Of a DNA stretch of 64,000 nt, positions 5,091 through 59,949 are shown in pieces. Below the pieces are notes generated by a model. It searched no databases and was not told the DNA's origin. It worked only from the letters and a program-made list of their open reading frames with translations. Within the stretch, counting starts at the first letter, position 1. Each line of letters begins with the position of its first letter. The position numbers were made by a program, and so were the translations under genes. Location of the stretch: contig CAVZBY010000002.1 in NCBI GenBank assembly GCA_963773685.1, positions 274,038 to 338,037 on the forward strand. Reading direction: 5' to 3'. This stretch comes from Candidatus Aminicenantes bacterium. GTDB lineage: Bacteria > Acidobacteriota > Aminicenantia > Aminicenantales > Saccharicenantaceae.

Positions 5091-5164
5091 GCGCCCGTAG
5101 CTCAGTTGGATAGAGCGTCTGACTACGAATCAGCAGGTCGGGTGTTCGAGTCACCCCGGGCGCG
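5091..5164 (+). tRNA. tRNA-Arg (anticodon ACG)
   Basis: Cloverleaf read by hand. Acceptor stem GCGCCCG/CGGGCGC, D-arm GCTCAGTTGGATAGAGC, anticodon stem-loop TCTGA-CTACGAA-TCAGC (anticodon ACG), T-arm GGGTG-TTCGAGT-CACCC, discriminator G. No encoded CCA. Confidence 0.9.
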
Positions 5165-33010: not shown

Positions 33011-33305
33011 GGATCCCTCCGTCGCGATTGAATCGAACATGATCTTCGGAAAGTCATAAATACGACAGAATGGCGGGAAATTCAATGGGTCCTTGCTTCC
33101 TTTCCGCCCGGGCGCTAGAATAGGTGCGATGAAGCAAGCGCTCGTCCCCATCATCGCGGCGCTAATTTTCCCGTTCGCGCTCCTCCTGTTCATATCGGTC
33201 GTCCCGTTCATCTCGATCATCCTCCTGGCGCGCGCGTCCCCGCCCGGCCCCTTCCGGGCGCTTTCTCTTTCTTTGTGTCCTTCCACCGGAAGAAGCCCCC
33301 CTATC

Positions 33306-33460
33306 ATCTAACGGAGACACGTTCCATCCGCCCCCTTGAATTCCAAGGGGGAAGGGGGATTAAGAGCTCCAAGGGCAGGATTCGTGTCTCCGCAAATATA
33401 TCTAACGGAGACACGCTCCATCGGCCCCCCTTGAATTCCCGTTCCGACCCGTGTCTCCGT
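33306..33460. repeat. structured direct plus inverted repeat element in the divergent intergenic region upstream of the secA2-like gene
   Basis: The direct repeat ATCTAACGGAGACACG(T/C)TCCATC(C/G)GCCCCCTTGAATTCC appears at 33306 and 33400. Inverted copies CGTGTCTCCG(T) at 33384 and 33450 give two consecutive stem-loops with 10-11 bp stems. There is an inner palindrome CCCCTTGAATTCCAAGGGG. Confidence 0.5.
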
Positions 33461-33509
33461 AACGGCTCGAGAACGTGTCCCGCTTGGATGACCGGATAGG
33501 AGGTCTGTC

Positions 33510-36011
33510 ATGAAGTACAAAGCGCTGTTCGCCCGGGCCGCGGGCGACACGATCGAAACCGATCTCGGACCTTATCGGAAGGCCCTTGAAGAGATCCTGA
33601 GCCGTCCGACCGGACGGCTCGACGACGCTGAGTTGAAATCCGCATCGGAGCGTCTCATCGGAGGCGCACGGGCGGGAGGGGCGGAGCCCGGCCCTCGGGC
33701 GCCCTCGGTACCGGAGATACCGAAGGTTGCCATCGAAGCCTTCGCCCTCGTCCGGGAAGCGTCGCGCCGCGTCCTTGGGCTCGATCCGTTCGACGTCCAG
33801 ATCATCGCCGGGCTCGCCATGTCCGCCGGCCGGATCGTCGAGTTGCCGACGGGGGAGGGGAAGACCCTCGCCGCCGTGTTCCCGGCGTATCTTCATGCCC
33901 TTTCGGATCGCGGCGTCCACGTGCTGACATTCAACGATTACCTGGCGCGGCGCGACGCCTCCTGGATGGGTCCCGTGTTCTCTTTTCTCGGCCTATCGGT
34001 CGGATGCGTCCGGGAGGGAATGCCTGCTGCCGACCGGCGCCGGGCCTATGCTAGCGACATTACTTACGCCGCCGCGCGGGAAGCGGGGTTCGATTTTCTG
34101 CGCGACAGGCTCGCTATCGTGCCCGGCGACGTCGTCCACAGGCCGTTTCACCTGGCCCTCGTCGACGAGGCCGACTCCGTTCTCATCGACGAGGCGCGCG
34201 TCCCGCTCGTCATTTCGGCGAACGCGGACCCCAGCGGGCTCGACGCCGGGCGGCTGGCCGCTCTCGTCCGGACGCTCGAGCCGGGCCGGGACTACGCGAC
34301 CGACGCCGAACACAGGAACGTCTCCCTGACCGACACCGGCCTGGACCGGGTCGAGGCCGCTCTCCGGACCGGGAGCCTCTATGAAGAGGCGAGCCGGGAC
34401 CTTCTGACGGCCGTCCATTGCGCGCTCCACGCCGAGGCCCTGCTCCGCAGGGACGTCGATTATATCGTCCGGGAGCGGGGCGTCGAGATCGTCGATGAGT
34501 TCACCGGGCGGGTCGTCGACGGACGGCACTGGCCCGACGGGCTCCAGGCGGCCGTCGAGGCCAAGGAAGGGATCTCCCGGAACGCCGGGGGGCGCATCCT
34601 CGGCTCGATCGCCCTCCAACAGTACTTCGGCCTTTACCCCCGCCTCTGCGGAATGACGGCGACGGCGCGTTCGGCCGCGCCCGAGCTCGCGGAATTCTAC
34701 GGTTTGAAGGTCGTCGTGGTCCCGTCCCACGTCCCGAGCGTCCGGGAGGACCTCCCTGACGTCGTCTTCACCGACGCGGCGGCCAAGCGCGACGCCCTCG
34801 TGAGCGAGATCGGCGCGGCGCATGCGGCCGGAAGGCCCGTCCTGGTCGGCACCGCGAGCGTCAGGGAATCGGAAGGCCTGGCCGCCGGCCTGAAGGCGGC
34901 GGACATTCCCTGCGAGGTCCTCAACGCGCGGAACGACGAACTCGAAGCGGGAATCGTCGCCCGGGCCGGAAGCCGGGGCGCGGTCACCATCTCGACGAAC
35001 ATGGCCGGCCGCGGGACCGATATCAAGCTCGGGGGCCCCGACGAGCGGGACCGCGCTGCGATCGCCGCGCTCGGGGGTCTTTATGTCATCGGCACGAACC
35101 GGCACGAGAGCCTCCGCATCGACCGCCAGCTGAAGGGGAGGGCGGGGCGACAGGGAGACCCGGGGAGCTCCCGGTTCTTCATCAGTTTCGAGGACGACAT
35201 CTTCGTGCGGTACGGCCTCGACGGGATGCTGAGGAAACGGTACGGCCCGGTGCGCCGGAGCGAGCCCGTCGCCGGCCGCTTGGTCCGGAACGATATCGCC
35301 CACGCCCAGCGCGTCATCGAAGGCCAGAACTTCGATATCCGCCGCTCCCTGCGAAAATATTCCGCGCTGGTCGAGCGCCAGAGGATCATCGTCCAGGCGT
35401 GGCGCGACGATGTCCTCGTCCCTGGGGAACGCAAGGCGGAGGGAGAGGAGAGGGCCCGCGAGTGGGAACCCGTCGGGATCGTCCGAAGAAAGGACCGCGG
35501 TCTCTTCGCCGGGGGAGAGGCGCTCTTCGGGAAGGAGCCGATCGCGGAGCTCGAGAGGAGGCTGACGCTCTTGGCCATCGACAGGGCCTGGTCGGACCAC
35601 CTGGCCTGGGTGGCGGACTCCAGGGAAAGCATCCACCTCGTGGCCGTGGGAGGGAAGACGCCCCTCGACGAATTCGTCCGCTCCGCGACGGCTGAGTTCA
35701 TGGAGATCCCCGGCCGTATCGAGAACGCCGTTGTCGCCGGCTTCGCCTCGATGATCAACAGGAACGGGCCTCTGGACCTGGACGCCGACGAGCTCAAGGG
35801 CCCGGCGTCGACCTGGACCTATCTGGTTAATGAGGACCAGTTCGGCTGGGGGATGGAAATGTTGAAAGGGCGGAACATCGGCCTGGCCGCGGGGGCGGCG
35901 CTATATGCGGGCCCGCTGTTCCTCCTGACCCTGCTCTTGCGGAAGCTCCGGAGATCCGGAAGGTCCCGGAGTCCCGAAACCGAAGGCCGCGGACCGGGAC
36001 GGGAGGGCTAA
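33510..36011 (+). CDS. secA2: SecA-family preprotein translocase ATPase of the accessory SecA2 type
   Basis: 833 aa, intact. Walker A ELPTGEGKTLAA, DEADSVLIDEARVPLVIS (the SecA2 signature DEADSVL against housekeeping DEVDSIL), TNMAGRGTDIKLGG, RIDRQLKGRAGRQGDPGSSRFFISFEDDIF. It is shorter than canonical SecA (no HWD-like insert, no Zn-finger C-terminal tail) and has a 100-aa atypical N-terminus and a hydrophobic C-terminal tail. Confidence 0.75.
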   Translation: MKYKALFARAAGDTIETDLGPYRKALEEILSRPTGRLDDAELKSASERLIGGARAGGAEPGPRAPSVPEIPKVAIEAFALVREASRRVLGLDPFDVQIIAGLAMSAGRIVELPTGEGKTLAAVFPAYLHALSDRGVHVLTFNDYLARRDASWMGPVFSFLGLSVGCVREGMPAADRRRAYASDITYAAAREAGFDFLRDRLAIVPGDVVHRPFHLALVDEADSVLIDEARVPLVISANADPSGLDAGRLAALVRTLEPGRDYATDAEHRNVSLTDTGLDRVEAALRTGSLYEEASRDLLTAVHCALHAEALLRRDVDYIVRERGVEIVDEFTGRVVDGRHWPDGLQAAVEAKEGISRNAGGRILGSIALQQYFGLYPRLCGMTATARSAAPELAEFYGLKVVVVPSHVPSVREDLPDVVFTDAAAKRDALVSEIGAAHAAGRPVLVGTASVRESEGLAAGLKAADIPCEVLNARNDELEAGIVARAGSRGAVTISTNMAGRGTDIKLGGPDERDRAAIAALGGLYVIGTNRHESLRIDRQLKGRAGRQGDPGSSRFFISFEDDIFVRYGLDGMLRKRYGPVRRSEPVAGRLVRNDIAHAQRVIEGQNFDIRRSLRKYSALVERQRIIVQAWRDDVLVPGERKAEGEERAREWEPVGIVRRKDRGLFAGGEALFGKEPIAELERRLTLLAIDRAWSDHLAWVADSRESIHLVAVGGKTPLDEFVRSATAEFMEIPGRIENAVVAGFASMINRNGPLDLDADELKGPASTWTYLVNEDQFGWGMEMLKGRNIGLAAGAALYAGPLFLLTLLLRKLRRSGRSRSPETEGRGPGREG

Positions 36012-37063
36012 TCGCCGGCGACGAGGACGAGACGGACCCGGCGCTCCTTGTCCTCTCGCTTCACGGTCAGGGTCACGGCGTCCCCGATGCGCCTCTCTTC
36101 GAGCGCCGTATAGAGGTCGTCGTACGACGTCACCTTTGTCCCGTCCACGGCGACGACGACGTCCCCCAGGAAGAGGCGGCCGAAGCGGTCGCGCCCCAGT
36201 CCCTGGAGTCCCGCCCGCGCGGCGTCGCTCCCCCGGGGAACTTCGAGGACGGCGACCCCCTCGACGCCGATACGCCGGGCGTATTGATCGCTCATCAGGG
36301 AGACGCCCAGCCCCGGATGGACGACCTTCCCGTTCCGGATGATCTCGGGGACGATCTTCCGGATCGTGTCCACGGGGACGGCGAACCCGATCCCGCTCGA
36401 CGCCCCCGAGGGCGAGATGATCAGGGTGTTCATCCCGATGAGCCTGCCGGCCGAGTCGAGAAGCGGCCCGCCCGAGTTCCCGGGGTTGATGGAGGCGTCC
36501 GTCTGGATCATGTCGCGAATGGTGACCCCGCCCGCGCCGGGCATGCTGCGTCCCAGGGCGCTGACGATCCCGGTGGTGACCGTGTGGTCGAAGCCGAAGG
36601 GATTGCCGATGGCGATGACCTTCTGTCCGACCTGAAGGTCCCTGGAGATCCCGACATCGACGGGGAAGAGGCCCGCGAGGTCGCCCTCGACCTTGAGGAC
36701 CGCGATATCTTTGTTGGGCTCGCGGCCGACGAGCCGGGCCCGCCTCTGTTCGCCGCCCGGCAGGGCGACGTTGAAGATGTCGCCGTCCTCGATGACGTGG
36801 AAATTCGTGACGATGTGGCCCCGGTCGTCCCAGACGAATCCGGAACCGCTGCCCCGGGGCACGGCCTCCTCGCTCGAGAAGAAGGATTCCTTGACGAGCT
36901 GGATATTGGTCACGAACACGACCGAGTTCTTTGTCCTCCGGACGACCTCGATGGTATTGCTCTCGTCCTCGAGGAAGCGGGATTCCTGCCCCCGCGCGGG
37001 GACGGTTCCCAGCAGGGCGACGAGCCCCGGGACCGCGGCCCAGACCAGCCATTTCGTTCTCAT
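36008..37063 (-). CDS. htrA: HtrA/DegP-family periplasmic serine protease (trypsin domain plus one PDZ)
   Basis: 351 aa, intact. Signal peptide, His (TNFHVIEDG), Asp (DIAVLKV) and Ser (GNSGGPLLD) of the triad, then a PDZ domain. Overlaps the secA2 stop by 4 nt (convergent). Confidence 0.8.
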   Translation of the reverse strand: MRTKWLVWAAVPGLVALLGTVPARGQESRFLEDESNTIEVVRRTKNSVVFVTNIQLVKESFFSSEEAVPRGSGSGFVWDDRGHIVTNFHVIEDGDIFNVALPGGEQRRARLVGREPNKDIAVLKVEGDLAGLFPVDVGISRDLQVGQKVIAIGNPFGFDHTVTTGIVSALGRSMPGAGGVTIRDMIQTDASINPGNSGGPLLDSAGRLIGMNTLIISPSGASSGIGFAVPVDTIRKIVPEIIRNGKVVHPGLGVSLMSDQYARRIGVEGVAVLEVPRGSDAARAGLQGLGRDRFGRLFLGDVVVAVDGTKVTSYDDLYTALEERRIGDAVTLTVKREDKERRVRLVLVAGD

Positions 37064-37148: not shown

Positions 37149-37559
37149 TCAGGCCCGGCCGATGGGCCTGGCGAGGGAGCAAGCCCATCGGTAGAACTCG
37201 GACGCGGCCCGGACCAGCTCCTCGGCCTCCCTGGCGGTGAGGTTCCGGCGCTCGTATTGGACGAGGTTCTTTTTCCCGATGACGCGGCGAAGGAGAGCGG
37301 CCTGCGCCGCGGCCTCGGGGAGGGGGATGGCGGCGACGAGCTCGCAGATGTCGAGGTCGTCCTGGGAAACGGACCGGATCCCCTTGAAATAGACGCACAG
37401 GGCGTCGGCCGAAGAGACCGAACACTGGAGGGCCAGAGTGCCGGCGGCGTTATGGTGCTTCGCGGCGAAGGCGGCCAGCATGGCCCCGTGGTTGTCCTCG
37501 GCCTTGTTGAAATAATCGATGGCGGCGCTGCGGTCCTCTTTGCGCGTCCTGACCTTCAT
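37149..37559 (-). CDS. HEPN-domain protein (partner of the upstream nucleotidyltransferase)
   Basis: 136 aa. Its helical profile (AIDYFNKAEDNHGAMLAAF..AGTLALQCSVSSADALCVYF..) resembles PF05168-type HEPN. It lies 10 nt downstream of the NTase gene in the classic MNT-HEPN order. The canonical Rx4-6H motif is not obvious. Confidence 0.45.
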   Translation of the reverse strand: MKVRTRKEDRSAAIDYFNKAEDNHGAMLAAFAAKHHNAAGTLALQCSVSSADALCVYFKGIRSVSQDDLDICELVAAIPLPEAAAQAALLRRVIGKKNLVQYERRNLTAREAEELVRAASEFYRWACSLARPIGRA

Positions 37560-37568
37560 GACGGCACC

Positions 37569-38204
37569 TCACAGGAACGCGATCGGGTCCTTCCCGAAGA
37601 GCGTTCGATAGGTTTTCATCAGGGTCGAGACCGGCGGCTCATTCCGGCGGGCCTTCCTCCGGAACTCGGCCTCCGTTTTGATATAGGGATCGACATGGAA
37701 GCCGAATTCGCCGAAGAACCCGGCCGCGACCGTCTCCCGGAGGGCCTTCTCGAGGCGGGCCTTGGCCCGGGCGTCCCGGACGACGAAGGCCACGTCGCCG
37801 TCGCTCGTCTCCCGGGTCCGTCCCGCGGCCAGGCTTCCGTAGAGAAGCGCGGACACGACGGACGGCCTCAGGCCCAGTTCGGCGATCCGTTTCTCCAGAA
37901 AGGCCCCGACATCTTCCCGGAGCGCGTGCTCGCGGGCGAAAAGCGGCCGGAGAATGTCCCGGACGAGGCGGGCCCGCGAGTTCAGGCGGTACAGATGCTG
38001 TCGTCCGACGATCTCGCGCCCGACGACGCGGGCGTCGAGCAGGGACCGGAGGGCGGCGTGAGCGGCGGGGGGGGACAGGGCCGTCAGCCGGGCGACCTCC
38101 CTTCCGGAGGCCAGGAAATCGTCCGTCCGCAGGGCGAAGAGGCGAACGACGCGGACCTTCGACCGTCCGTCGAGAACGTCATCCAGGATCGTTTCCAGGG
38201 CCAT
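37569..38204 (-). CDS. nucleotidyltransferase-domain protein (minimal-NTase/MntA-like) with an N-terminal winged-HTH extension
   Basis: 211 aa. LLYGSLAAGRTRETSDGDVAFVV is the GS..x9-13..DxD polymerase-beta-type NTase motif. The N-terminal roughly 90 aa look like a wHTH (..VVRLFALRTDDFLASGREVARLTALSPPAAHAALRSL..). Confidence 0.65.
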   Translation of the reverse strand: MALETILDDVLDGRSKVRVVRLFALRTDDFLASGREVARLTALSPPAAHAALRSLLDARVVGREIVGRQHLYRLNSRARLVRDILRPLFAREHALREDVGAFLEKRIAELGLRPSVVSALLYGSLAAGRTRETSDGDVAFVVRDARAKARLEKALRETVAAGFFGEFGFHVDPYIKTEAEFRRKARRNEPPVSTLMKTYRTLFGKDPIAFL

Positions 38205-38440
38205 GGCGTGTCAATCTTTTGATACGGATGTCAATTATATTTAACATTGCCCGCCCCTGTCAAGCGCCCGAAAGCCCGCTCGTTCCGTATCCAAATATCC
38301 GTATCGGCTGTAAACGGATGCCCGGCCGTTTTACATGATTCCGCATTTTCGGCCCGGTCCCTTCCCCTGTATCGATGGCACGTCTTTTGCAGAGGGGAGA
38401 TGCGCATCATCTCAAAGTCTATCGGATACAGGAGGCTGAT

Positions 38441-41225
38441 ATGTTCAAACGATCGTGCGTTCTGATCCTGCTCCTGGCCGCGGTAGCGGCGGCGGGATGG
38501 GCGCAGCTCGCCCAGACCGGCTCCATCGTCGGCAAGGTCAGGGACGCGCAGGGAGCGCCGCTTCCGGGCGTCGAGGTCGTCCTCAGGTCGCCCGCCATCA
38601 TCGTTTCCCAGATGGCGACGGTGACGAATGAGAACGGCGGCTATCGATTCCCGTCGCTTTCGCCGGGGATCTATGAGCTGACCTTCACGCTCTCCGGATT
38701 CAATACGCTCGTCCGGAAGGAGATCAAGGTCAGCATCGGCCAGACGGCCTCGATCGACGCGGCCCTGGACGTCAAGACCCTCGAGGAACAGGTGACCGTC
38801 ATCGGGCAAGCCCCGGCGGTCGATCTCAAGACGACGACCAAGAACATCAACCTCGAGACGGCCTTCCTGAGCTCCATCCCGGCCGTCCGCGACCTGGCCA
38901 CGTTCGTCAACATGACCCCCGGCTTCACCTCGGACACGTCCCACGGGAGCTCGGTCCGGGACAACACCTACAATCTCGACGGGGTCAACCTGGGCGATCC
39001 GACCGTCGGGACGCAGGCCGTCTTCTTCGGGCTCGACCTGATGGAGGAGATCTCCGTCCAGTCCGGCGGCCTCTCGGCCGAGTACGGCGGCGTCCGGGGC
39101 GCCATGATCAACGTCGTCAGCAAGTCCGGAGGGAACCAGTTCAGCGGCGCGGCGTCCTTCTATTACCGGAACGAGAAGTTCCAGTCGAAGAACACCGCCG
39201 GCACGCCCCTCGAAGGGCGGCTCAGCGGCTTCAAGTACGAGATGGAGCCGATCTTCGATCTCGGCGGGCCCATCCTCAAGGACAAGCTCTGGTTCTTCAT
39301 GAACCTCAGCTTCTCCAAGAACCAGACGTACGTGGACGGCTTCCCCTACGACAAGACGGCCAACACGCCCGTGGACAGCTACATGCCCTATCCGTACATC
39401 AAGTTCAGCTTCCAGCCCGATCAGGGGAACAAGTTCATCCTTTCCTATAATTATTCCGACATCAAGTACACCAACCGTTTCGCCGACAGGTTCCAGACCG
39501 AGGACACGACCGTCAAGCAGGTCACGCCGACCCACGTCTTCAACTTCCAATGGACGCGGTTCTTCTCGAGCGACCTGTTCGCCAACCTGCGGGTCGGCTA
39601 CGTCAAGTCCGACTTCAACATGCTGGCCAAGACCGCGCTCCCGAACCTCTACGAGGTCACGACCGGGAACGTCTCGGGAAGCTACGGCAACGACGACCTC
39701 AACAAGAGGGACCGGCTCCAGATCAACGTCGACGCGACCCGGTTCATCGACGGGCTGGCCGGCTCCCACGAGCTGAAGTTCGGCGGGGAGTTCATGTACT
39801 CCTGGAGCTACTGGGGCCTGCATTGGAAGACCGATCCGCAGGAACGGCATGTCCTCCATCAACACCTGGGGCGGCGAGCCCTGGTACGGGACCTATTACG
39901 CGGACCTCGACAAGCACGAGAACACGATGAACTCCGCCGCCTTCATCAACGACTCCTGGACGCTCAATAACCGTCTGACGCTGAACCTGGGCCTGAGATT
40001 CGAGCACCAGCGCGGCATCATCCCTCCCCAGAACCAGGGCGAGGGGGAACAGAGCCTTTACGGCTACACCTACAATCGCAGCGTGACCAAGAGCCTGACG
40101 CCCCTGAAATGGACCACGCTGGCCCCGAGACTGGGCGGGATCTTCGACCTCACGGGAGACGGGAAGACCCTGGTCAAGGCCAGCTTCTCCCGCTACTACG
40201 CGGCCAACCTCACCCAGTGGTTCTCCTACCTCAATCCTAACGACTTCGTTGTGGCGCTGGACATGCTGAATCCCGACTGGTCCCGGGCCGACACGCCGTT
40301 CTATCATTTACGTTCCCGGCAGCAACACGGCCGGATACGGGGACCATAAGCTGAAGAACCCGTACATCGATGAGTTCACGATCGGCGTCGAGCGCGAGGT
40401 CATGACCGATCTTTTCGATGGGCGTCCGCTACATCAAGAAATGGGACAGGAACCTCATCGAGGACGTGAACGCCAACATGCTGGACATGGACGCGCTGAT
40501 GGACCGGGGCGAGCTCATCTGGAAGAACTGGGAGGCCGTCACGGTGACGGACCCCTATGACGGGAGCACGCAGACGTTCTACAGCCAGACGGCCTTCCCG
40601 GCGGCCGTCTATTACACCGTCAATCCTCCCGGCGCGGAGCGGAACTACGACGGCTTCGAGGCCACGCTGAACAAGAGGTTCTCCGGGAGATGGGGCCTGT
40701 CGGTCTCCTACACCTATCAGAATTCCCGGGGACTCATCGGAACGGATTTCAACGACAGCTACGGCGCCCGCGGCTATTTCGACGACCCCAACTGAGCACA
40801 CGAACGCGTTCGGGCACATGAACCTCGAGCGCCCGCATCAATTCAAGGTCCAGGGCATGGTCAAGGGGCCCTGGGGGATCATGGGCAGCTGCTATTACCG
40901 GTACCTGTCCGGTCAGCGCTACACGCGGAAGATCAACAGCACCGATCTCGGCCTTGATCTGGGCCAGGGGGACACGACCATATACGCGGAAAAGCGCGGG
41001 TCCCGCGGACTTCCGGCCTTCAACGTTCTCGACCTCCGGCTGGAAAAGACGGTCCGCCTCAGGAGACTCGCCCTGAGCGTGTTCGTCGACGGCTTCAACG
41101 TCTTCAACGCCAACAAGGCGACCGGGGTGGAGGACCTGTCGGGCAACGCAAGCCGGGTCTTCGGAGAGATGACCGCCATCCAGAACCCGCGCATCTTCAG
41201 GCTGGGGGCGAAGTTCGAATTCTGA
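38441..41225 (+). CDS. TonB-dependent receptor with a carboxypeptidase-regulatory-like domain (TBDR #2), about 4 frame shifts near 39840, 40310, 40400 and 40795
   Basis: Signal peptide MFKRSCVLILLLAAVAAAGWAQ, GSIVGKVRDAQGAPLPGVEVVL..NGGYRF..LSPGIYEL. The body is spread over ORFs 38375..39970, 39849..40349, 40418..40795 and 40818..41225 and ends ..RLGAKFEF*. Confidence 0.7.
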
Positions 41226-47815: not shown

Positions 47816-49960
47816 ATGGTGCGAGGCGGATCTGCACGGCCGGCATCGGTTTCTTTCTGCTCTTCACGGGCTCGGGGGCCCCGGGCCTCGCGGGCGGCGC
47901 AGGGCGAGATCCAACAGGGACGGGAAGCCTCAACGTCCTGCTCGTCACCCTGGATACGACGAGAGCCGACCATATCGGGGCCTACGGCTGGAGCAAGGCG
48001 AGGACCCCGAACCTCGATTCGCTGGCGGCCGGGGGGGTCAGGTTCGCGAACGCTTATTGCCCGGCGCCCGCTGACGCTCCCTTCCCATTGTTCCATCCTG
48101 ACGGGAACCTATCCTCTGTACCATAAGGTCCGCAACAACGGCTCCTACTATCCTGGCCCCGGAGGCCGTGACCCTGGCCGAGAGGCTCCGGGACCGGGGG
48201 TTCCGGACGTCGGCCTTCGTCGCCTCGTTCAACGTCGATTCCCGGTTCGGCGTGGACCAGGGTTTCGCCGTGTACGACGACCGTTCGACGACGACCAGAT
48301 GCTCAAGACGTTCCGGTCCGAGCGCAAGGCCGACAAGGTCGCCGACGCGTTCATCGGCTGGCTGGGGGCGAACGCCGGGAGCCGGTTCTTTTCCTGGGTC
48401 CATTTCTTCGACCCCCATATGCCCCACGATCCGCCCTCGCCCTATAAGGAGGAATTCGCCGGCGACCTCTACGACGGCGAGGTCGCGTTCGTGGACCACG
48501 AGCTGGGGCGGGTCATCGAGGCCCTGCGGGCGAAGGGCATCCTGGAGAGGACGCTCGTCGTCGTCGCCGGCGACCACGGCGAGGCGCTCGGCGAGAAGGA
48601 AGAGCTCGACCACGGCATCTTCATCTACGACGGGACGATGAAGGTCCCGCTGATCTTCTACGCGGACAAGCGCCTGCCCGGCGGGACGGGTCGTCGATGC
48701 CAGGGTCAGGCTCATCGATCTCATGCCGTCGGTGCTGGACATGATCGGGATCCCGGTGAACAAGGAGGTCCAGGGGACGAGCCTCATGCCCTACATCGAA
48801 GGCAAGAGGGACGACGACCTGCCCTGCTATCTCGAGTCCTACTATCCTCCGGAGACCTACGGCTGGTCGGAGCTTCGAGGCCTCGTCGACGGGGACTGGA
48901 AGTTCATCCGCGCCCCCCGTTCGGAGCTCTACGACCTGAAGACGGACCCGAAGGAGGAGAAGGACCTCGTCGCGCGCGAGGCCGGGACGGCCGCCCGGCC
49001 TCAACAGGAAGCTGGACGAGATCATCAAGGCCTACACTTCGAAGACGGAAGCCGGGCCGGAGGACGCTGACCCGGGAGGAGGAGGACCGCCTGCGGTCGC
49101 TGGGCTATATCGGGGCCGGATGCGTCGGTCAAGGTCGGGAAGGGCCCGCTTCCCGATCCCAAGGACCGGATGGACGAGTTCAAGATCCTCTTCAAGGCGA
49201 AGCTTCTGGAGTACCAGGGGGAACTTCACGGAGTCGGAGAAGTGCTATCGGGAGCTCCTCCGCCTCGAGCCGGACGTGTCCTGGCACTATATCGGGCTGG
49301 CCATCCTCCTGGCGAGGGACCGGAGGGTCGGCGACGGCATCGAGGTCCTGAAGGGCGGGCTCCGAAGACTGCCCGATTCGACGGTCCTGATGTCGCGGCT
49401 GGCCAGCTTCTACATGAGGGTCGGGAACTTCAAGGAGGCCTTCGCCATGAGCCAGGCCACCCTGAAGCGCGACCCGCGGCATCTCGACGCCTTGGTCATC
49501 GCCGGCTGGTCCGAGGACATGCAGGGCCGACTGGAAGGAATCGGCCGGGTATTTCGGGAAGGCCCTGAAGATCGAGCCGGAGAACAAGTACATCCGGCTG
49601 AAATATGCCTATGCCCTGGGGGCCCTCGGCCGGGGAGAGGAGGCCGCCCGGATCGACGAAGCTCTCAAGAAGGAGTATCCCGACGACCATCGGGTCCATG
49701 CCGACCTCGGCGATCATCTACGCGTCGATGAACAGGCTGGACCTGGCCGAGGAGAACCTGCGGAAGGCCGTCGAGCTCGAATCCCGGGCCCGATTCCTAT
49801 CTGAGCCTGTGCGGCGATCCTCGAGCGGACGGGCAAGCTCGAGGACGCCATCGCCTATCTGAAGCTGTTCCTCGAGACGTCGAAGGAAGGCGAAACGCCC
49901 CGGATCAACAAGGCCCGAAAGGCCCTCGCGGAATGGGAGCGGCGGATCAAAGGGCGATGA
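47816..49960 (+). CDS. sulfatase-family (alkaline-phosphatase superfamily, Thr-nucleophile type) domain fused to C-terminal TPR repeats, paralog #1, several frame shifts
   Basis: ..LNVLLVTLDTTRADHIGAYG.. (metal-binding DxxxD), ..LTLPSHCSILTGTYP.. (the sulfatase Cys/Ser position is Thr and the Arg is His), ..VVAGDHGEALGE..HG.., then TPRs (..CYRELLRLEPDVSWHYIGLAILL..). It ends ..EWERRIKGR* and overlaps the next start (ATGA). Confidence 0.65.
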
Positions 49961-52067
49961 GGCTCCCGGCGCTCCTCCTCGTCCTCGCCCTGCCGTCCGG
50001 CGCGTCCCGGGTCTTCTCCGCCGCGCGGCAGGGAAGAGGGCGACCCGAACGTCCTTCTCGTGACCCTCGACACGACGCGGGCGGACCACATCGGGGCCTA
50101 CGGATACGCGAAGGCCCGGACGCCGGTCCTCGATGCCCTGGCCCGGAACGGCGTCCGCTTCGCCAACGCTGTATTGCGCGACGCCGCTGACCCTCCCTTC
50201 GCACTGCTCGATCCTCACGGGGACCTATCCGCTCCGGCACAAGGTCCGCAACAACGGGTCCTATTATCTCGGAGACGATGCGGTGACGCTGGCCGAGAGG
50301 CTCAAGGAGAGCGGATACGACACCGCCGCGTTCGTCGCTTCGTTCAACACCGATTCGCGGTTCGGGCTCGGCCAGGGGTTCGACGTCTACGACGACCAGT
50401 TCCTCGAGGACGAGCTCCTGAAGGCGTTCAAGTCCGAGAGGACGGCCGACAAGGTCGCGGACGCGTTCATCTCCTGGCTGGGGGCGAAGCCCCGGGACCG
50501 CTTCTTTTCCTGGGTCCATTTTTTCGATCCCCATGCGCCTTATGAGCCTCCCGCGCCCTATAAAGAAAGGTTCGCCTCCGACCCCTATGACGGCGAGATC
50601 GCCTTCATGGACCACGAGCTCGGGAGGATCATCGAGGCCTTGAAGGCCAAGGGCCTTCTCGAGCGCACCCTGATCGTCCTGGCCGGAGACCACGGCGAAT
50701 CCCTGGGCGAGCACGGGGAGAGCGATCACGGCATCTTCATCTACGACGCCGCGATGAAGGTCCCTCTCGTCCTCCATGCCCCGGGGGCCCTTCCGCGGGG
50801 GACGGCCGTGGGCGCGCGCGTCCGGCTTATCGACATCATGCCGACCGTCCTCGATTGGCTGAAGGCGGGCGTGAATCCCGAGGTCCAGGGGACGAGCCTC
50901 CTGCCCTTCATCGAGGGGAAGAGGAAGGATGACCTGCCCTGTTACCTCGAGACCTTCTACCCGAGGGAGACCTTCGGCTGGTCCGAGCTCGTGGGGCTCG
51001 TCGATGCGGACCGGAAGTTCATCCGGGCCCCCCGTTCGGAGCTCTACGACATCGAAAAGGACCCCGGAGAGCTGAAGGACCTGGCCTCGAGGGAATCCCG
51101 GACGGCCACGGCCCTCAACAAGAAGCTCGACGAGGTCATCCGCGCCCACGTCTCGAACGCGGAACCGGGACGCAGGACCGTGACGGGGGCCGAGGCCGAC
51201 CGCCTGCGCTCCCTGGGCTACGTCGCGGCGGGCGCGGCCCCGACGTCCGGGAAAGGCCCTTTGCCGGACCCGAAGGACAAGATCGGGGAAAACGCCATCC
51301 TGTCGCGGGCGCGGCTCCTGGAAGCGGAGGGCAAGTACGCCGAATCGGAAAAGGAATATCGCGACCTGCTCCGCCTGCGGCCCGAGGTGCCCTGGAACTA
51401 CATCGTCCTGGGCCTCCTGCTGGCCAAGGCCGAGCGGGCGGACGAGGGCATCGAGGTCCTGCAGGACGGCCTGAGGAGGATACCGGATTCGCTCGACCTG
51501 CTCTCGAACCTGGCCGAGCTCCTATATGAGGGCCGGCAAGTTCCCCCAGGCTTCCGAGACGAGCCGTGATGTTCTGAAGCGCGACCCCCGGAATTTCGAC
51601 GCGATGGTCATCGCGGGCTGGTCCGAGGACATGCTCGCCCATTGGACGGAGCGCGGCCGGCTTCTACCGCATGGCCTTGGAGGTCGAGCCGGAGAACAAG
51701 ACCCTCCGGATGAAATATGCCTATGTCCTGGGCGCCCTGGGCCGGGGCGACGAGGCCGCCGGCCATGGATGAGGCGCTCAAGAAGGAGTATCCGGCGGAC
51801 CCGAAGATCCGGACCGATCTCTCGGTCATCTATACGGCCCTGGGGAAGATGGACCTGGCGGAGGAGAACCTCCGGAAGGCGGTCGCCCTGAGCCCGACGC
51901 CCGAGAATCATCATCGGCTGGCCTCGCTCCTCGGCCGGGTCGGAAAGCTCGAGGAGGCCGTCGTCCAGATGAAGCTCTATCTCAGGACGACCAAAGAAGG
52001 GGAGACGCCCCGGAAGGCCCGCGCCCGCGAGGCCGTCGCGGAATGGGAAAGGCGGATATCGAAATGA
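49957..52067 (+). CDS. sulfatase-family domain plus TPR fusion, paralog #2, several frame shifts
   Basis: MRLPALLLVLALPSGAS.., ..VLLVTLDTTRADHIGAYG.., ..LTLPSHCSILTGTYP.., ..VLAGDHGESLGEHGESDHGIFIY.., TPRs (..EYRDLLRLRPEVPWNYIVLGLLL..), ends ..EWERRISK*. Confidence 0.65.
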
Positions 52068-54174
52068 AGAGGCGCTGGGCCTGTCCTGGCCGTCGCGGTC
52101 CTCGCCGCGGGGGGACCGCTTCCCGGGAGCGCCGCGGGCGACGTGAAACGGGAGGAAGGGCTCAACGTCCTCCTCGTGACCCTGGACACGACGAGGGCCG
52201 ACCGTCTCGGCGCGTACGGATATGACAAGGCCCGGACGCCCGCCCTCGATGCCCTGGCGAAGAACGGGGTTCGGTTCGCGAACGCTTATTGCGAGGTCCC
52301 GATGACCCTGCCCTCGCACTGTTCCATCCTCACGGGAACCGGTCCGCTCTACCACAAGGTCCATAACAACGGGACCTATTACCTCAACAAGGACATCGTC
52401 ACCCTGACCGAGAGACTCAAGGCCAAGGGGTATGCGACGGCGGCGTTCGTCAGCTCGTTCAACGTGGACTCCCGCTTCGGCGTCGGGAAAGGGTTCGATG
52501 TCTTCGACGACCGGTTCCGCGACGACGAGATGATGAAGACCTTCCGTTCGGAGAGGCGGGCGGGGGAGACCACGGCGGCCTTCCTCCGCTGGCTGGACGG
52601 GCGGGGGGACGGACCGTTCTTCTCATGGATCCATTATTACGACCCCCATACGCCCTATAAACCCCCGTCGCCGTTCCGGGAACAGCTCGCTCCGACCCGT
52701 ACGACGGCGAGATCGCCTACATGGACGAGTGCTTCGGGAAGGTCCTGGCGCGGCTCCGCGAAAAGAACCTGCTCGAGCGGACGCTCATCGTGGTCGCCGC
52801 CGACCACGGCGAGGCCTTTGGAGAGCGGGGGGAGCTGGGTCATGGCGTTTTCATCTACGACGTCACGATGAAGGTCCCGCTCCTCATCCACGCCCCCAAG
52901 AACCTTCCGGCGGGCCTGGTCGTCGCGTCGCGGGTCAGGCTCATGGATATCATGCCGACCGTCCTGGACGCGCTGAAGATGCCCGCGGGCAAGGAGGTCC
53001 AGGGGACGAGCCTTCTGCCCTACATCGAGGGTCGAAGGAAGGACGATCTTCCCTGCTACATGGAAAGCTATTATCCGCTGGAGACCTACGGCTGGTCCGA
53101 GCTGGTCGGCCTCGTCGACGGCGACTGGAAATTCATCCGCGCCCCGCGGCCCGAGCTCTATGATCTCAAGTCGGACCCGGCGGAGATGCGGGACCTCGTC
53201 CAGAAACAGGCGGGGCGGGCCTCGGGCGATGATGCGCGAGCTCAAGGACATGATCGCCGCGTCCGCATCCGACCTCGGCCAGAGCCGGAGGAAGCTCAGC
53301 CGGGAAGAGGAGGAGCGCCTGAGGTCTCTCGGCTACGTGGGGAGCGACGCTTCGGTCCGTGTCGGCAAAGGCCCGCTTCCCGACCCCAAGGACATGATGT
53401 CCGAGTTCCAGATCCTCTACCGGGCCAAGACGAACGAATGGGACGAGAAATGGGACGCCGCGGAGAAGGATTACCGGGAGATCCTCCGCCTCCAGCCCGA
53501 CGTCGCCTGGCGTTATGTCGACCTGGCGATCTTCCTGACGATCCGGGACAGGCTCCCCGATGCCATCGAGGTCCTCAGGCAGGGGCTGGCGCGGATGCCG
53601 GATTCCTTCGTCCTCCTCACGCGGCTCGCCCATCTGGAGATGGGTGCGGGCCGATACGACGAGGCCTACGAAATGAGCCAGGCGGCCCTCCGGATCGACC
53701 CCGGGTATTTCGACGCCCTGGTCATCGCCGCCGGGGTCGAGGACGTCCGCGGCCATTGGGAGGCTTCCGAAAAGGATCTACCGGCGGGCCCTCGCGGTCG
53801 AGCCCGAGAACAAAAAGGTCCGGATGAAGCAGGCCTATCGCGCTGGGAGCCATGGGGCGGGGAGAGGAGGCCGTGAAGATCGACGAGGCCTTGAAGGCGG
53901 AATACCCCGACGACTCCCGGCTCCGCCAGGACCTGGGCGTGATCTACGCCGACCTCGGCCGATGGGACCTGGCCGAAGAGAACATGAGGAAGGCCGTCGA
54001 GCTCCAGCCGTCGCCCGAGACCTGGTTCAACCTCGCGTCCGTCCTCGAACAGGCGGGGAACCTCGCCGAGGCCGTCCGCTATCTCAGGCTCTACATCGAG
54101 AAGACCACGGAGGGCGAGACGCTCCGCAAGGCGAACGCCCGGAAGGCCCTGGCCGATTGGCAGAGGCGCGCTGA
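52064..54174 (+). CDS. sulfatase-family domain plus TPR fusion, paralog #3, several frame shifts (3' end approximate)
   Basis: MKRRWA then a frame shift, then ..LNVLLVTLDTTRADRLGAYG.., ..MTLPSHCSILTGTGP.., ..VVAADHGEAFGERGELGHGVFIY.., TPRs (..DYREILRLQPDVAWRYVDLAIFL..), ending ..LADWQRR. The true stop is masked by a frame change within 54170..54215. Confidence 0.6.
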
Positions 54175-58010: not shown

Positions 58011-59878
58011 TTGGCAGAGATGCAAAAGCCTGGAAACGGCACGAAGCGGAATGCCTGCCGCGCGGGGCGGGGTCCGCGTGCGGGCCGGGAGCGCCGGCGT
58101 CCGGCCGCCCGGGAGATCGACGACCTGCGACGCCGGGCCCACCAGGCCGAACGGGAGGCCCAGGCCGCGAAGGCCCGACTGGAACATCTCCTCAGCGCGA
58201 GCTCGGGCGTCATCCTGAGCTGCCGGGCCGCCGATCACGGGGCCACCTTCGTCAGCCGGAGCGTGAAGACGGTCCTCGGTTACGAGCCCGACGAGTTCCT
58301 GAAGGAGCCGGCTTTCTGGCTCGAGGCCGTCCATCCCGAGGACCGGGAAGAGGTCGAGGCCATGTTCGCTTATGTCAGCGAGGTCGGGAACCTTGTCCAC
58401 GACTTCCGGATAAGGCACAGGGACGGAGGGTATCGCTGGCTCCGCGACGAGCTCCGCCTGTCCGTTCCTTCCGACGGGCGGGGGGCCGGCGAGATCGCCG
58501 CCTACTGGATCGACATCACCGAATCCAAGTCGCTCGAGGAACAGTACCTCCACGACGCCTTCCATGATACCCTGACCAACCTCCCGAACCGCGCCCTATT
58601 CGAGGACCGCCTCCGGGTATCCTTCGCCCGGGGCCGCCGGCGGAAAGGCTCCACGTTCGCCGTCCTGTACGTCGATCTCGACCGCTTCAAGAACGTCAAC
58701 GAGAGCCTGGGGCATGCCTTGGGGGACCGGCTCCTGGTGGCGGCGTCACGAGGCTGTTGAAGTGCGTCCGATTCGGGGACATCGTCGCCCGGCTCGGCGG
58801 AGACGAGTTCATCATCATCCTCGAGGACATCAAGGACCGGGCGGACATCGAAACGACGGCGGCGCGCATCCAGACGGAGATCGGGCGCCCCTACGACCTC
58901 GGCGGGGAGACGGAGGCGTTCGCCTCGGTCAGCATCGGTATCGCCATCGCCCACCCGGCCCTCGAAAGGCCCGAGCACCTTGTCCGGGACGCCGAGACCG
59001 CGATGTTCCGGGCGAAGGCCTCAGGCCGGGCCTGCCACGTCGTCTTCGACGGCGCCATGCGCGACAAGGCCATGACCGCCCTCCGGCTGGAAACGGACCT
59101 CCGGCGCGCGGTCGAGAGGAACGAGTTCGTCCTCTATTACCAGCCGATCTGCCGGCTGAAGGAAGGGACCGTGGCCGGGTTCGAGGCGCTTATCCGGTGG
59201 CGCCACCCGACACGTGGCCTGATCCTCCCGGGCCAGTTCATCTCCCAGGCCGAGGAGACGGGGCTCATCGTCCCGATGGGAGAATGGGCGCTCCGGGAAG
59301 CCTGCCGGCAGATGCGGGCCTGGCAGGAGGCCTTCCCGGGGACCCCGCCGCTCGGCATCAGCGTCAACCTCTCCAGCAAACAGCTCCTGCCGGGGTTCGC
59401 GGACCGTGTCCGGGACATCCTCTTCGAAACGGGGCTCGAGCCCTCCTCCCTGCAGCTCGAGATCACGGAAAGCACGATCATCGACGATCCCGATTGGGCG
59501 GCGGGCCTCTTCGCGGAGCTCCGGAACATGAAGGTCCGCGTCCTCATCGACGACTTCGGGACGGGGTACTCGTCCATGAACTACCTCAGCAAGCTCTCGA
59601 TCGACGGGCTGAAGATCGACCGGAGCTTCATCGGCGCCATGAGCCCGTCGGGGGAGGGGCTGGAGATCGTCCGGATGATCCTGGCCCTCGCCCGGAACCT
59701 GGGCCTCACGGTCGTGGCCGAGGGCGTCGAGACGGCCGAGCAGATGGAATTCCTGAGATGGCTGAACGGCGAGTTCGCCCAGGGGTTCTACTTCGCCGAG
59801 CCGCTGGACGCCTCCGCGGCCGAGCGGTTCCTGGCCGCCAAGACGAAGGGAGCGTCGGCGACCCGTCCCGGCCTCTGA
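58011..59878 (+). CDS. PAS-GGDEF-EAL c-di-GMP turnover protein, 1 frame shift near 58745
   Basis: N-terminal coiled-coil, PAS (..FVSRSVKTVLGYEPDEFL..VHPEDREEV..), GGDEF (..NLPNRALFEDRL.., RLGGDEF in the second frame) and EAL (..FEALIRW.., EITES, DDFGTGYSS, QGFYFAEP). TTG start. Confidence 0.8.
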
Positions 59879-59895
59879 AGCCCCGCCATCGTGGC

Positions 59896-59924
59896 TTGCC
59901 AATTGCCTCCTCCGGTCCTATAAT
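59896..59924 (+). promoter_or_regulatory. near-consensus sigma70 promoter (TTGCCA, 17-nt spacer, TATAAT) 26 nt upstream of the S9-peptidase gene
   Basis: Direct sequence match. AAAGGAG ribosome-binding site at 59937. Confidence 0.55.
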
Positions 59925-59949
59925 CCCCATCTTCGCGAAAGGAGCGTCC

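Follow-up and report, generated by a model that had tools for sequence, protein, structure and literature searches.

We describe a gene pair in a 64-kb stretch of DNA (64,000 nucleotides of contig CAVZBY010000002.1 from a Candidatus Aminicenantes bacterium), referred to here as the window. The pair consists of secA2, which encodes an 833-amino-acid ATPase of the SecA2 type (33510..36011, + strand), and of an unannotated upstream open reading frame (uORF) on the same strand (33129..33311). We propose that the uORF and secA2 make up a two-gene regulatory unit, in which a stalling peptide would serve as the sensor that controls a SecA paralog with a membrane-type tail, and we put the probability of this reading at roughly two in three. 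The reading draws on the family placement of the ATPase, on a hydrophobic C-terminal tail found in every member of its clade, and on a family of upstream peptides in which a hydrophobic segment is followed, at a nearly fixed distance, by an arrest-type motif at the very end of the reading frame. The region under a ribosome paused at this motif is predicted to pair with secA2's Shine-Dalgarno (SD) sequence.

A SecA2-type ATPase with a conserved hydrophobic tail

A curated profile hidden Markov model (HMM) and the domain architecture of the 833-residue protein support its assignment to the mycobacterial type of SecA2, and the phylogeny groups it with this type at the level of the wing-less clade. 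A preliminary description of the window, made from the DNA sequence without database searches, had already proposed a SecA2-type ATPase and had correctly reported an ORF of this length with a DEADS motif. Pfam models for SecA_DEAD, SecA_PP_bind and P-loop_SecA matched the protein, together with a partial match to SecA_SW. The NCBI-curated model for mycobacterial-type SecA2, TIGR04221, aligned from residue 35 of the protein over model positions 35-747 of 762 and scored 783.5 bits, its cut-off being 725. The two housekeeping models remained below their cut-offs, TIGR00963 with 707.7 against 800 and PRK12904 with 717.6 against 814. Three other SecA2 models were also below their cut-offs, and the score for the streptococcal/staphylococcal type, TIGR03714, was far below (523 against 930).

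The ATPase motifs of SecA are present. Walker A (PTGEGKT) occupies residues 113-119 and the Walker B DEAD residues 219-222, the latter within LALVDEADSVLIDEA, and GRAGRQGDPG was also found; across 50 homologs there was no variation in Walker A, Walker B or the GRxGRQGDPG motif. The first 100 residues had been described as unlike SecA, which did not hold. The Pfam alignment to SecA_DEAD begins at residue 17, corresponding to profile position 11, and AIEAFALVREASRRVLGLDPFDVQ at residues 73-100 is a canonical SecA motif, with AFALVREASRRVLGL...DVQ at residues 77-97. The sole odd part of the N-terminus is a low-complexity insert near residues 55-70.

Comparison with SecA structures located the domain losses. 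The closest solved structure is that of Mycobacterium tuberculosis SecA2 (4uaq), to which residues 77-777 aligned in a single continuous stretch, whereas the alignment to Bacillus subtilis SecA broke into two stretches with approximately 48 residues missing at the position of the helical wing domain. The wing-region landmarks IEGQNFD and DRAWSDHL are separated by 88 residues in the query protein as compared to 120-238 residues in 63 canonical SecAs. The C-terminal zinc finger (CxCx8-10C[HC]) is absent, as had been noted before, and the scaffold and IRA1 helices are retained according to both Pfam and the AlphaFold model. At the tip of the two-helix finger the aromatic residue is replaced, VAVGG standing opposite RAYAQ of B. 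subtilis SecA, much as in M. tuberculosis SecA2. The AlphaFold model itself has a SecA fold with a confidence (pLDDT, predicted local distance difference test) of 69, and a fold search confirmed the SecA fold, a criterion that does not separate SecA1 from SecA2.

From a search of 1.84 billion cluster representatives, 150 relatives comprising both SecA2-like and canonical forms were obtained. In a common alignment these relatives split cleanly into canonical SecAs and a wing-less, SecA2-like group. The canonical sequences mostly carry DE[VI]DS at Walker B, and a zinc finger was present in 39 of 63. The wing-less group has 39-94 residues between the wing landmarks, contains a STWTY motif and has no zinc finger. 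The DEAD sequence, which the preliminary description had treated as a SecA2 signature, turned out to be a strong tendency rather than a diagnostic feature: 80 of 90 wing-less sequences carry it at Walker B, but so do 7 of the 63 canonical SecAs, among them a Chloroflexi SecA with a zinc finger. A distance-based neighbour-joining tree (150 sequences, 709 columns, 100 bootstraps, tips without taxon labels) placed all 87 wing-less sequences, including M. tuberculosis SecA2, in one clade apart from canonical SecA with a bootstrap value of 100. Within it, the clade of the query and the clade of M. tuberculosis SecA2 each had a bootstrap value of 100, with no support for the branching order between them. 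The query lies outside the actinobacterial SecA2 subclade, on an Acidobacteriota/Aminicenantes branch of its own.

The resemblance to M. tuberculosis SecA2 is thus one of type: neither protein has a helical wing domain or zinc finger, both have DEADS at Walker B and the STWTY motif, and the M. tuberculosis protein is the best solved relative, represents the curated model whose cut-off was passed, and falls into the same clade. The two differ in that they belong to separate, well-supported branches and in that the host of the query is a diderm of the Acidobacteriota/Aminicenantes and not an actinobacterium. They also differ in their C-terminal ends and in the upstream region, as described below; in the literature we saw no arrest-peptide uORF reported for mycobacterial secA2.

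More than 120 clusters in the protein database are 58-88% identical to the query, those with names being assigned to Aminicenantes, Aminicenantales and Acidobacteriota, plus one to Desulfaltia. Relatives at 60-63% identity, from metagenome-assembled genomes (MAGs) of Aminicenantes and Acidobacteriota, carry the NCBI label 'accessory Sec system translocase SecA2', so that, as far as automatic annotation goes, calling the protein SecA2-type is not new. The sequence assigned to 'Candidatus Desulfaltia' (Desulfobacterales; P0042) is nearly the same as sequences labelled Aminicenantales (P0040), which suggests either misbinning or recent transfer. A scan of species genomes with peptide patterns returned mostly canonical SecA of Clostridia and Borreliella, with SecA2-like loci limited to L002, L003 and L008.

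Taken with the precedent of related proteins, the curated HMM and the tree make it probable that the ATPase is an accessory SecA and not the only one of the organism. The alternative is that the query is the sole SecA, a divergent housekeeping motor that has lost wing and zinc finger and is under the control of a SecM-like upstream peptide. Its ATPase motifs are intact, the SecM circuit of Escherichia coli does act on housekeeping SecA (PMC10987492), and neither the 64-kb window nor the 4.5-10 kb flanking secA2 in 76 related loci contained a second secA. This last result says little, because SecA genes need not adjoin each other. We consider the alternative improbable: both housekeeping models fell below their curated cut-offs while the SecA2 model passed, the sole characterised member of the bootstrap-100 clade, M. 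tuberculosis SecA2, is accessory, the aromatic residue of the finger tip is replaced, and related secondary SecA-like proteins of other diderm phyla co-exist with canonical SecA (PMC4452313).

These secondary SecA_DEAD proteins, reported in 2015 from Planctomycetes, Verrucomicrobia, Proteobacteria, Nitrospirae and Chlorobi, resemble the query in being second SecA-like ATPases of diderms; in phylogeny they are related to the SecA2 of actinobacteria, their wing/scaffold region is reduced, and they occur alongside canonical SecA (PMC4452313). They differ in lacking most or all of SecA_SW and in belonging to a module with HlyD, OEP and peptidase-M50 genes (PMC4452313), whereas the query partly retains SecA_SW and HlyD, OEP and M50 genes are absent from the window.

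The C-terminal end was known to be hydrophobic from the preliminary description, and our comparison shows that it is also conserved. The protein ends in ...NIGLAAGAALYAGPLFLLTLLLRKLRRSGRSR..., and this tail was kept in all close homologs compared. Its hydrophobic segment (35877..35942, + strand; residues 790-811, IGLAAGAALYAGPLFLLTLLLR) precedes the basic cluster KLRRSGRSR. In all members of the query clade, STWTYLVNEDQFGWG leads into the pattern ...NIG[FL]AAGAA..(G)PL(F)..L.LL..., after which comes a stretch of Lys/Arg. Across 50 homologs the positions N789, G791 and L803 are invariant and A796, A797, G801, P802 and L808 nearly so, the conservation of the tail extending over homologs of 58-88% identity. 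AlphaFold predicts a single helix at residues 790-815 with low confidence. A hydrophobic tail of at least 40 residues is present in 42 of 76 cluster representatives of the wing-less group, and over half of the branches outside Actinobacteria have it. Members of the M. tuberculosis-type clade end approximately 27-34 residues past STWTY without a comparable tail, whereas the query clade adds a tail of 50-67 residues made up of the hydrophobic helix and the basic end. Similar tails were seen in a sequence from a Saprospiraceae MAG and, more weakly, in one from a Mageeibacillus MAG.

From its composition and conservation, the tail may serve as a membrane anchor. Because the basic cluster lies on the C-terminal side, a monotopic or hairpin insertion into the cytoplasmic leaflet would be the most likely topology; a simple N-in/C-out tail anchor is less likely because the conserved charges would be pushed across the membrane. 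Alternatively, the tail could be an auto-inhibitory, signal-peptide-like segment that fills the substrate groove of SecA itself. A literature search on SecA2 in Acidobacteria and diderms and on membrane-anchored SecA found no description of such a tail. Judging from the searchable literature, neither the conserved tail of membrane type nor the wide spread of the wing-less family beyond Actinobacteria appears to have been described.

An upstream peptide family and the predicted pairing of its reading frame with the secA2 Shine-Dalgarno sequence

The uORF consists of 60 codons and a stop codon and encodes MKQALVPIIAALIFPFALLLFISVVPFISIILLARASPPGPFRALSLSLCPSTGRSPPII, a candidate monitoring substrate of the ribosome-arrest type. 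Residues 4-34 (33138..33230, + strand) form a hydrophobic segment of 31 amino acids with internal prolines, which from its hydropathy is a putative membrane-insertion signal. The candidate arrest motif, Arg-Ser-Pro-Pro (33291..33302, + strand; codons AGA AGC CCC CCT), is followed only by Ile-Ile and the stop codon TAA. No Pfam or NCBIfam model matched the peptide, and gene callers either skipped the uORF or called a gene on the opposite strand in its place.

To follow the uORF through the query clade, 80 further loci were taken from metagenomes by alignment of the clade-specific C-terminus of SecA2, 49 of them with enough upstream DNA to be counted. A plus-strand ORF that combines a hydrophobic segment with R[SGA]PP near its end was present in 46 of these 49 loci, giving 42 distinct peptides. 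Control small ORFs from elsewhere in the same loci (all six frames, n=5,903) included 228 with a hydrophobic segment and 75 with the motif but none with both. Close relatives have the same uORF peptide as the window. The 61%-identical ortholog on a 4.07-Mb contig (ERZ25039602:contig_7625) is preceded by a peptide of differing sequence built on the same plan, which ends in ...CLRSPPFFL before the stop.

The 42 distinct peptides, mostly 60-81 residues long, agree in their layout. The arrest-type motif is RSPP in 35, RGPP in 5 and RAPP in 2, and the stop codon always follows 1-3 codons later. The types include that of the window, ending in ...GRSPPII, one of 61 residues ending in ...LLRSPPR and one of 78 residues ending in ...LRSPPLFF. 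Hydropathy analysis found a hydrophobic stretch in all 42 (median 30 amino acids). The linker between the end of the hydrophobic stretch and the first Pro of the motif has a median length of 25 amino acids and measures 23-25 in 31 of the 42 peptides; its sequence varies while its length is fixed. In most loci, 47-61 nt separate the stop codon of the uORF from the start of secA2. The uORF also carries a coding signature. Among 12 distinct uORFs of 61 codons, variability at the three codon positions was 0.32, 0.19 and 0.41, and the ratio of synonymous to nonsynonymous differences was 939:1602 in frame as compared to 200-690:1783-2266 in the five other frames.

Saprospiraceae, Mageeibacillus and Bryobacterales also have SecA2-like genes, but no uORF was found ahead of these. 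In the Mageeibacillus MAG (locus L003, 4650-5290), the SecA2-like gene is preceded by a tandem repeat with a spacing of approximately 74 nt that reads LQPGIAKQPIQAAFFASTRGLFTNDYSLESLSSQFRLHSSPRPGDYSPMITA in shifting frames. A different relation between the two genes of the pair was also considered. In many loci (L119, L121, L144, L150, L151 and others) the uORF shares its frame with secA2, and only one UGA and approximately 58 nt without a further stop lie between them, such that read-through of the stop would give an N-terminally anchored uORF-SecA2 fusion. We rejected this candidate on the basis that the spacers (47-61 nt) are not always multiples of three and that several loci have in-frame stops between the uORF and secA2. 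Across the family the shared frame is not kept, and it is probably incidental.

Transcription of the pair may start at the uORF itself. A possible -10 promoter element, TAGAAT, can be read at 33116..33121 (+ strand), 7 nt upstream of the uORF ATG; a consensus scan found no full sigma-70 site. A TAnAAT hexamer lies approximately 7-10 nt before the uORF ATG in L086, L089, L097, L105, L113, L126 and L153. An SD sequence precedes 17 of the 42 uORFs. As read from the sequence, the transcript may be leaderless or have a very short leader.

RSPP has been recovered from random arrest screens in E. coli, and in the RAPP-like block Pro-tRNA reportedly sits in the A-site. The RAPP-like class blocks peptide-bond formation (PMC10951233). 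RSPP is listed as a RAPP-like, arrest-permissive sequence (PMC10987492, PMC7897499, PMC12992588) and is among the most under-represented tetrapeptides of bacterial proteomes (PMC12992588); when placed into ApdA and ApdP it gave only partial activity (PMC7897499). Given that the candidate stall site is a Pro-Pro pair and that the uORF peptides contain further PP and PxP stretches (ASPPGP, FPP and LPLP), the uORF could be a leader peptide that responds to translation capacity at proline codons, that is, the supply of elongation factor P (EF-P) or Pro-tRNA, and not membrane insertion. We think this very unlikely. Such a sensor has no role for a hydrophobic segment of 30 residues that is conserved and set at a constant distance from the motif, RxPP-type stalls are reported to be EF-P-resistant (PMC12992588), and the regulated gene is an export motor.

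We examined the leader RNA for pairing of the SD of secA2, GGAGG at 33499..33503 (+ strand), with 6 nt between it and the ATG. The SD is paired in the minimum-energy fold of 33285-33524, the anti-SD bases being those of the Pro-Pro codons (33296..33301, + strand), which pair within 33494-33503. Similar pairing was predicted in relatives with other spacers. Among the minimum-energy folds for 36 distinct spacers, the secA2 SD was paired in 29 and paired with the stretch under a ribosome paused at the motif in 23. RNAalifold gave a single consensus for each of two groups: for 16 loci CCUCCUC just past the stop codon with GAGGAGG, and for 10 loci the codons after Pro-Pro with GACAGAGG, with compensatory changes in three pairs. 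Although the position of the anti-SD relative to the stop differs by group, it always falls inside the footprint of a ribosome stalled at the motif.

A further possibility is that the uORF peptide is not a stalling sensor at all and that the RSPP end and the SD pairing are incidental or reflect simple translational coupling. The hydrophobic core, PFLILAVLFLPLPF, is well conserved, Sec systems commonly have small membrane subunits, and the linker is shorter than in known monitoring substrates, each of which would suit a peptide that works in the membrane. We nevertheless judge this unlikely, since what these mutually dissimilar peptides conserve most is R[SGA]PP at a fixed place, with 1-3 codons between it and the stop, a tetrapeptide class that is strongly avoided in proteomes (PMC12992588). 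The constant location of the anti-SD within the footprint, and a linker held to length but free in sequence, likewise favor a sensor that stalls.

The leader of the window carries structure beyond the SD helix. The fold of 33300-33512 has a z-score of -5.1, and 0 of 200 shuffled sequences folded as well; the structured leader reported in the preliminary description was therefore real, and what had been missed in it was the small uORF and the anti-SD helix. The structured spacer (33304..33491, + strand) contains an outer helix of 33304-33324 with 33471-33491 around two hairpin units of approximately 94 nt. The units are tandem direct repeats (33306-33345 and 33400-33439) with 10-nt arms, CGGAGACACG and CGTGTCTCCG, at positions 33312, 33383, 33406 and 33450. 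One copy of the unit is present in the related locus L082 and none in L083 and L084, in which the spacer is 52 nt, and the unit was not found elsewhere in the window. We considered the repeat as a dispersed element and rejected this, as it occurs at a single spot of the window and is not conserved in close relatives; for the same reasons the repeat is not the regulatory core. The strong structure of the leader in the window is explained by the repeat insert, which is lineage-specific. The unit may represent a small insertion element, or else a palindrome to which a protein binds. No known RNA family in Rfam matched the leader.

HtrA and the genomic neighborhood

An HtrA/DegP-family periplasmic serine protease is encoded downstream of secA2 on the opposite strand (36008..37063, - strand). 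The protein has 351 residues, Trypsin_2 and PDZ domains and a signal-peptide-like N-terminus. The convergent orientation and the 4-nt overlap of the two ORF ends were found as previously described. The order of genes is BNR/sortilin protein, uORF, secA2, HtrA, a 136-residue protein, a nucleotidyltransferase, a TonB-type receptor, a TPR protein and a GWxTD protein; this order, including the overlap, is common to relatives at 75-78% identity.

The preliminary description had taken this arrangement to suggest a dedicated route of export, in which SecA2 and the overlapping HtrA would together handle export and quality control of special substrates. Aside from the retention of the overlap in close relatives, the idea has in its favor that HtrA is an envelope-stress protease and that many secreted hydrolases and outer-membrane proteins are encoded nearby. 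It is largely refuted by the lack of conserved synteny, and we regard it as highly improbable. HtrA was found near secA2 in 11 of approximately 80 loci, all of them in the nearest subclade and at varying distance, sometimes 0.6-4 kb away; the link is thus one of local synteny and not of a conserved system, because the adjacency is limited to that subclade. On the 4.07-Mb contig, the 61%-identical ortholog has unrelated neighbors with no HtrA adjoining. The two genes are not co-transcribed because they are convergent. Among the annotated ORFs of the window there are no SecY2, SecY-like, Asp, SatS-like, HlyD, OEP or peptidase_M50 genes. HtrA, the BNR/sortilin protein and the nucleotidyltransferase pair were each considered as parts of the system and set aside, their synteny with secA2 being confined to the nearest relatives.

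Several other features of the window were observed. Next to HtrA, at 37149-38204 (- strand), lie the genes for a 211-residue nucleotidyltransferase-fold protein (Polbeta/NTP_transf_2) and the adjoining 136-residue protein without a Pfam match. The pair is kept beside HtrA in L082-L084, and its arrangement resembles that of a toxin-antitoxin pair of the MNT/HEPN type. Genes that look split or fused by frameshifts occur at 824-2935, 38375-40349, 47816-52871 and 58011-62769. The TonB-type receptor is 926 residues long in L082 and L083 and is broken into ORFs of 531 and 166 residues in the window, sulfatase domains are spread over three ORFs, one ORF fuses RNase_H_2 with ADH_N, and another fuses a truncated GGDEF region with DPPIV, S9 and beta-lactamase domains. 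These cases suggest indel errors of long-read assembly, or pseudogenes. In length, the secA2 ORF itself matches that of its 88% relative. A tRNA at 5091-5164 (+ strand) was the only match to Rfam at the gathering threshold in the window.

A proposed switch and its relation to known monitoring systems

In the mechanism that we propose, the SecA2-type ATPase would act, by analogy, as an ATP-driven motor on the ordinary SecYEG channel and would be held at the membrane by its conserved C-terminal hydrophobic helix with the basic end. A ribosome translating the uORF would stall at RSPP, like those on the RAPP and RAGP arrest peptides. The stalled ribosome would cover the anti-SD bases, whether these lie in the Pro-Pro and following codons or just past the stop, thereby freeing the ribosome-binding site of secA2 and allowing SecA2 to be made. 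If the insertion machinery engages the hydrophobic segment promptly, a pulling force would lift the stall, the ribosome would terminate, the anti-SD:SD helix would re-form and secA2 would be silenced. The SecA paralog would in this manner be induced when membrane insertion or export capacity is short, the same logic that operates in MifM-YidC2 and VemP-SecDF2. The pathway sensed by the uORF peptide may be that of SRP (the signal recognition particle) with SecYEG, that of YidC, or SecA2 itself.

Several points weigh against this mechanism. The evidence for stalling consists of sequence and in-silico folds. The linker of 23-25 amino acids is shorter than the spacer of more than 30 that would be expected if the whole localisation signal must exit the ribosome, and at the stall no more than the first half of the hydrophobic segment would lie outside the ribosome. 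The C/U-rich end of the uORF is by composition partly complementary to any purine-rich SD, the longest pairing run averaging 8.05 nt as compared to 5.4-5.8 nt in control windows, and the pairing can show little covariation because the SD is constrained. The uORF is missing in 3 loci, which form one subclade in which another gene ends right upstream of secA2. With its basic C-terminal end the tail is hard to reconcile with a simple tail-anchor topology, and the confidence of the predicted helix is low. No canonical SecA was demonstrated in the same genome, the window and the locus flanks being the regions examined. As to the linker, the exposed first half of the hydrophobic segment would end approximately 38-41 residues from the P-site, a plausible distance for the generation of force.

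The switch can be compared with three kinds of known system. The arrangement is like that of SecM and SecA in E. coli in having an upstream ORF on the same strand with an N-terminal localisation signal and an end of the R-x-x-P type (RAGP in SecM, RSPP here). In SecM-SecA an SD-sequestering helix is opened by the stalled ribosome (PMC10987492), an event that is only predicted for the uORF and secA2. SecM differs in its length of 170 residues, its cleavable signal peptide and its spacer of 70-130 residues, as opposed to a peptide of approximately 60-80 residues with a hydrophobic anchor and a linker of approximately 24 residues. SecM has no sequence similarity to the uORF peptide, and its target is the housekeeping SecA rather than a SecA2-type paralog.

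MifM-YidC2 of B. subtilis and VemP-SecDF2 of Vibrio are closer in logic, in that a stalling peptide turns on a second localisation factor when the primary pathway is weak, and MifM shares an N-terminal transmembrane segment (PMC10987492). Their arrest sequences are different, and the gene regulated here is a SecA paralog. Median spacers are 54 residues for MifM and 71-133 residues for SecM and VemP (PMC10987492). We did not find a monitoring circuit that controls a SecA paralog in the arrest-peptide literature searched.

In its arrest motif the uORF peptide is most like the RAPP-like peptides (ApdA, ApdP, ApcA and the RQH family), which carry C-terminal R/Q/H-x-P-P and are encoded upstream of sec and yidC genes. 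RAPP-like arrest peptides share no other similarity among themselves, and RSPP was accepted as a motif by Fujiwara et al. 2024 (PMC10987492). The RQH groups upstream of secA that are named in the main text (Pseudomonadales, Myxococcales, Bacteroidales, Desulfurobacteriales and Fimbriimonadales) include none from Acidobacteriota and none tied to SecA2, and the text of the 2021 (Sakiyama) and 2024 (Fujiwara) screens mentions neither Acidobacteriota nor SecA2. Both screens required that uORFs be annotated and that the spacer exceed 30 residues, the spacer length being a search criterion and not a mechanistic requirement. With a median linker of 25 amino acids the present peptides fall short of that spacer, and the screens would miss these uORFs because of the two criteria. 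From its sequences, the uORF family would appear to add to the RAPP-like arrest peptides a member that is new in its target (a SecA2 paralog) and in its phylum and that has an atypically short linker. We see an even chance that the broader picture is correct, namely that diderms contain a large class of wing-less, membrane-tailed SecA paralogs, of which the Acidobacteriota/Aminicenantes representative is feedback-controlled by new short-linker RSPP peptides.

SecA2 biology is known almost wholly from Gram-positive pathogens. If the reading proposed here is true, mycobacterial SecA2 would be one twig of a much larger family of wing-less SecAs that spans Acidobacteriota, Bacteroidota, Clostridia and other groups, with a membrane-anchor-like tail on most of its branches. 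The uORF and secA2 would form the third circuit, after MifM-YidC2 and VemP-SecDF2, to combine a monitor with a back-up paralog, and the first for SecA2. The RAPP-like arrest family would be extended to a new phylum and a new target gene, and the linker of 23-25 residues would challenge the assumption that the signal must exit fully from the ribosome before force can release the stall. It would also follow that annotation-dependent searches overlook regulators of this kind. Because it would be induced when insertion or export is limiting, the SecA paralog would be a stress or back-up motor and not a virulence device.

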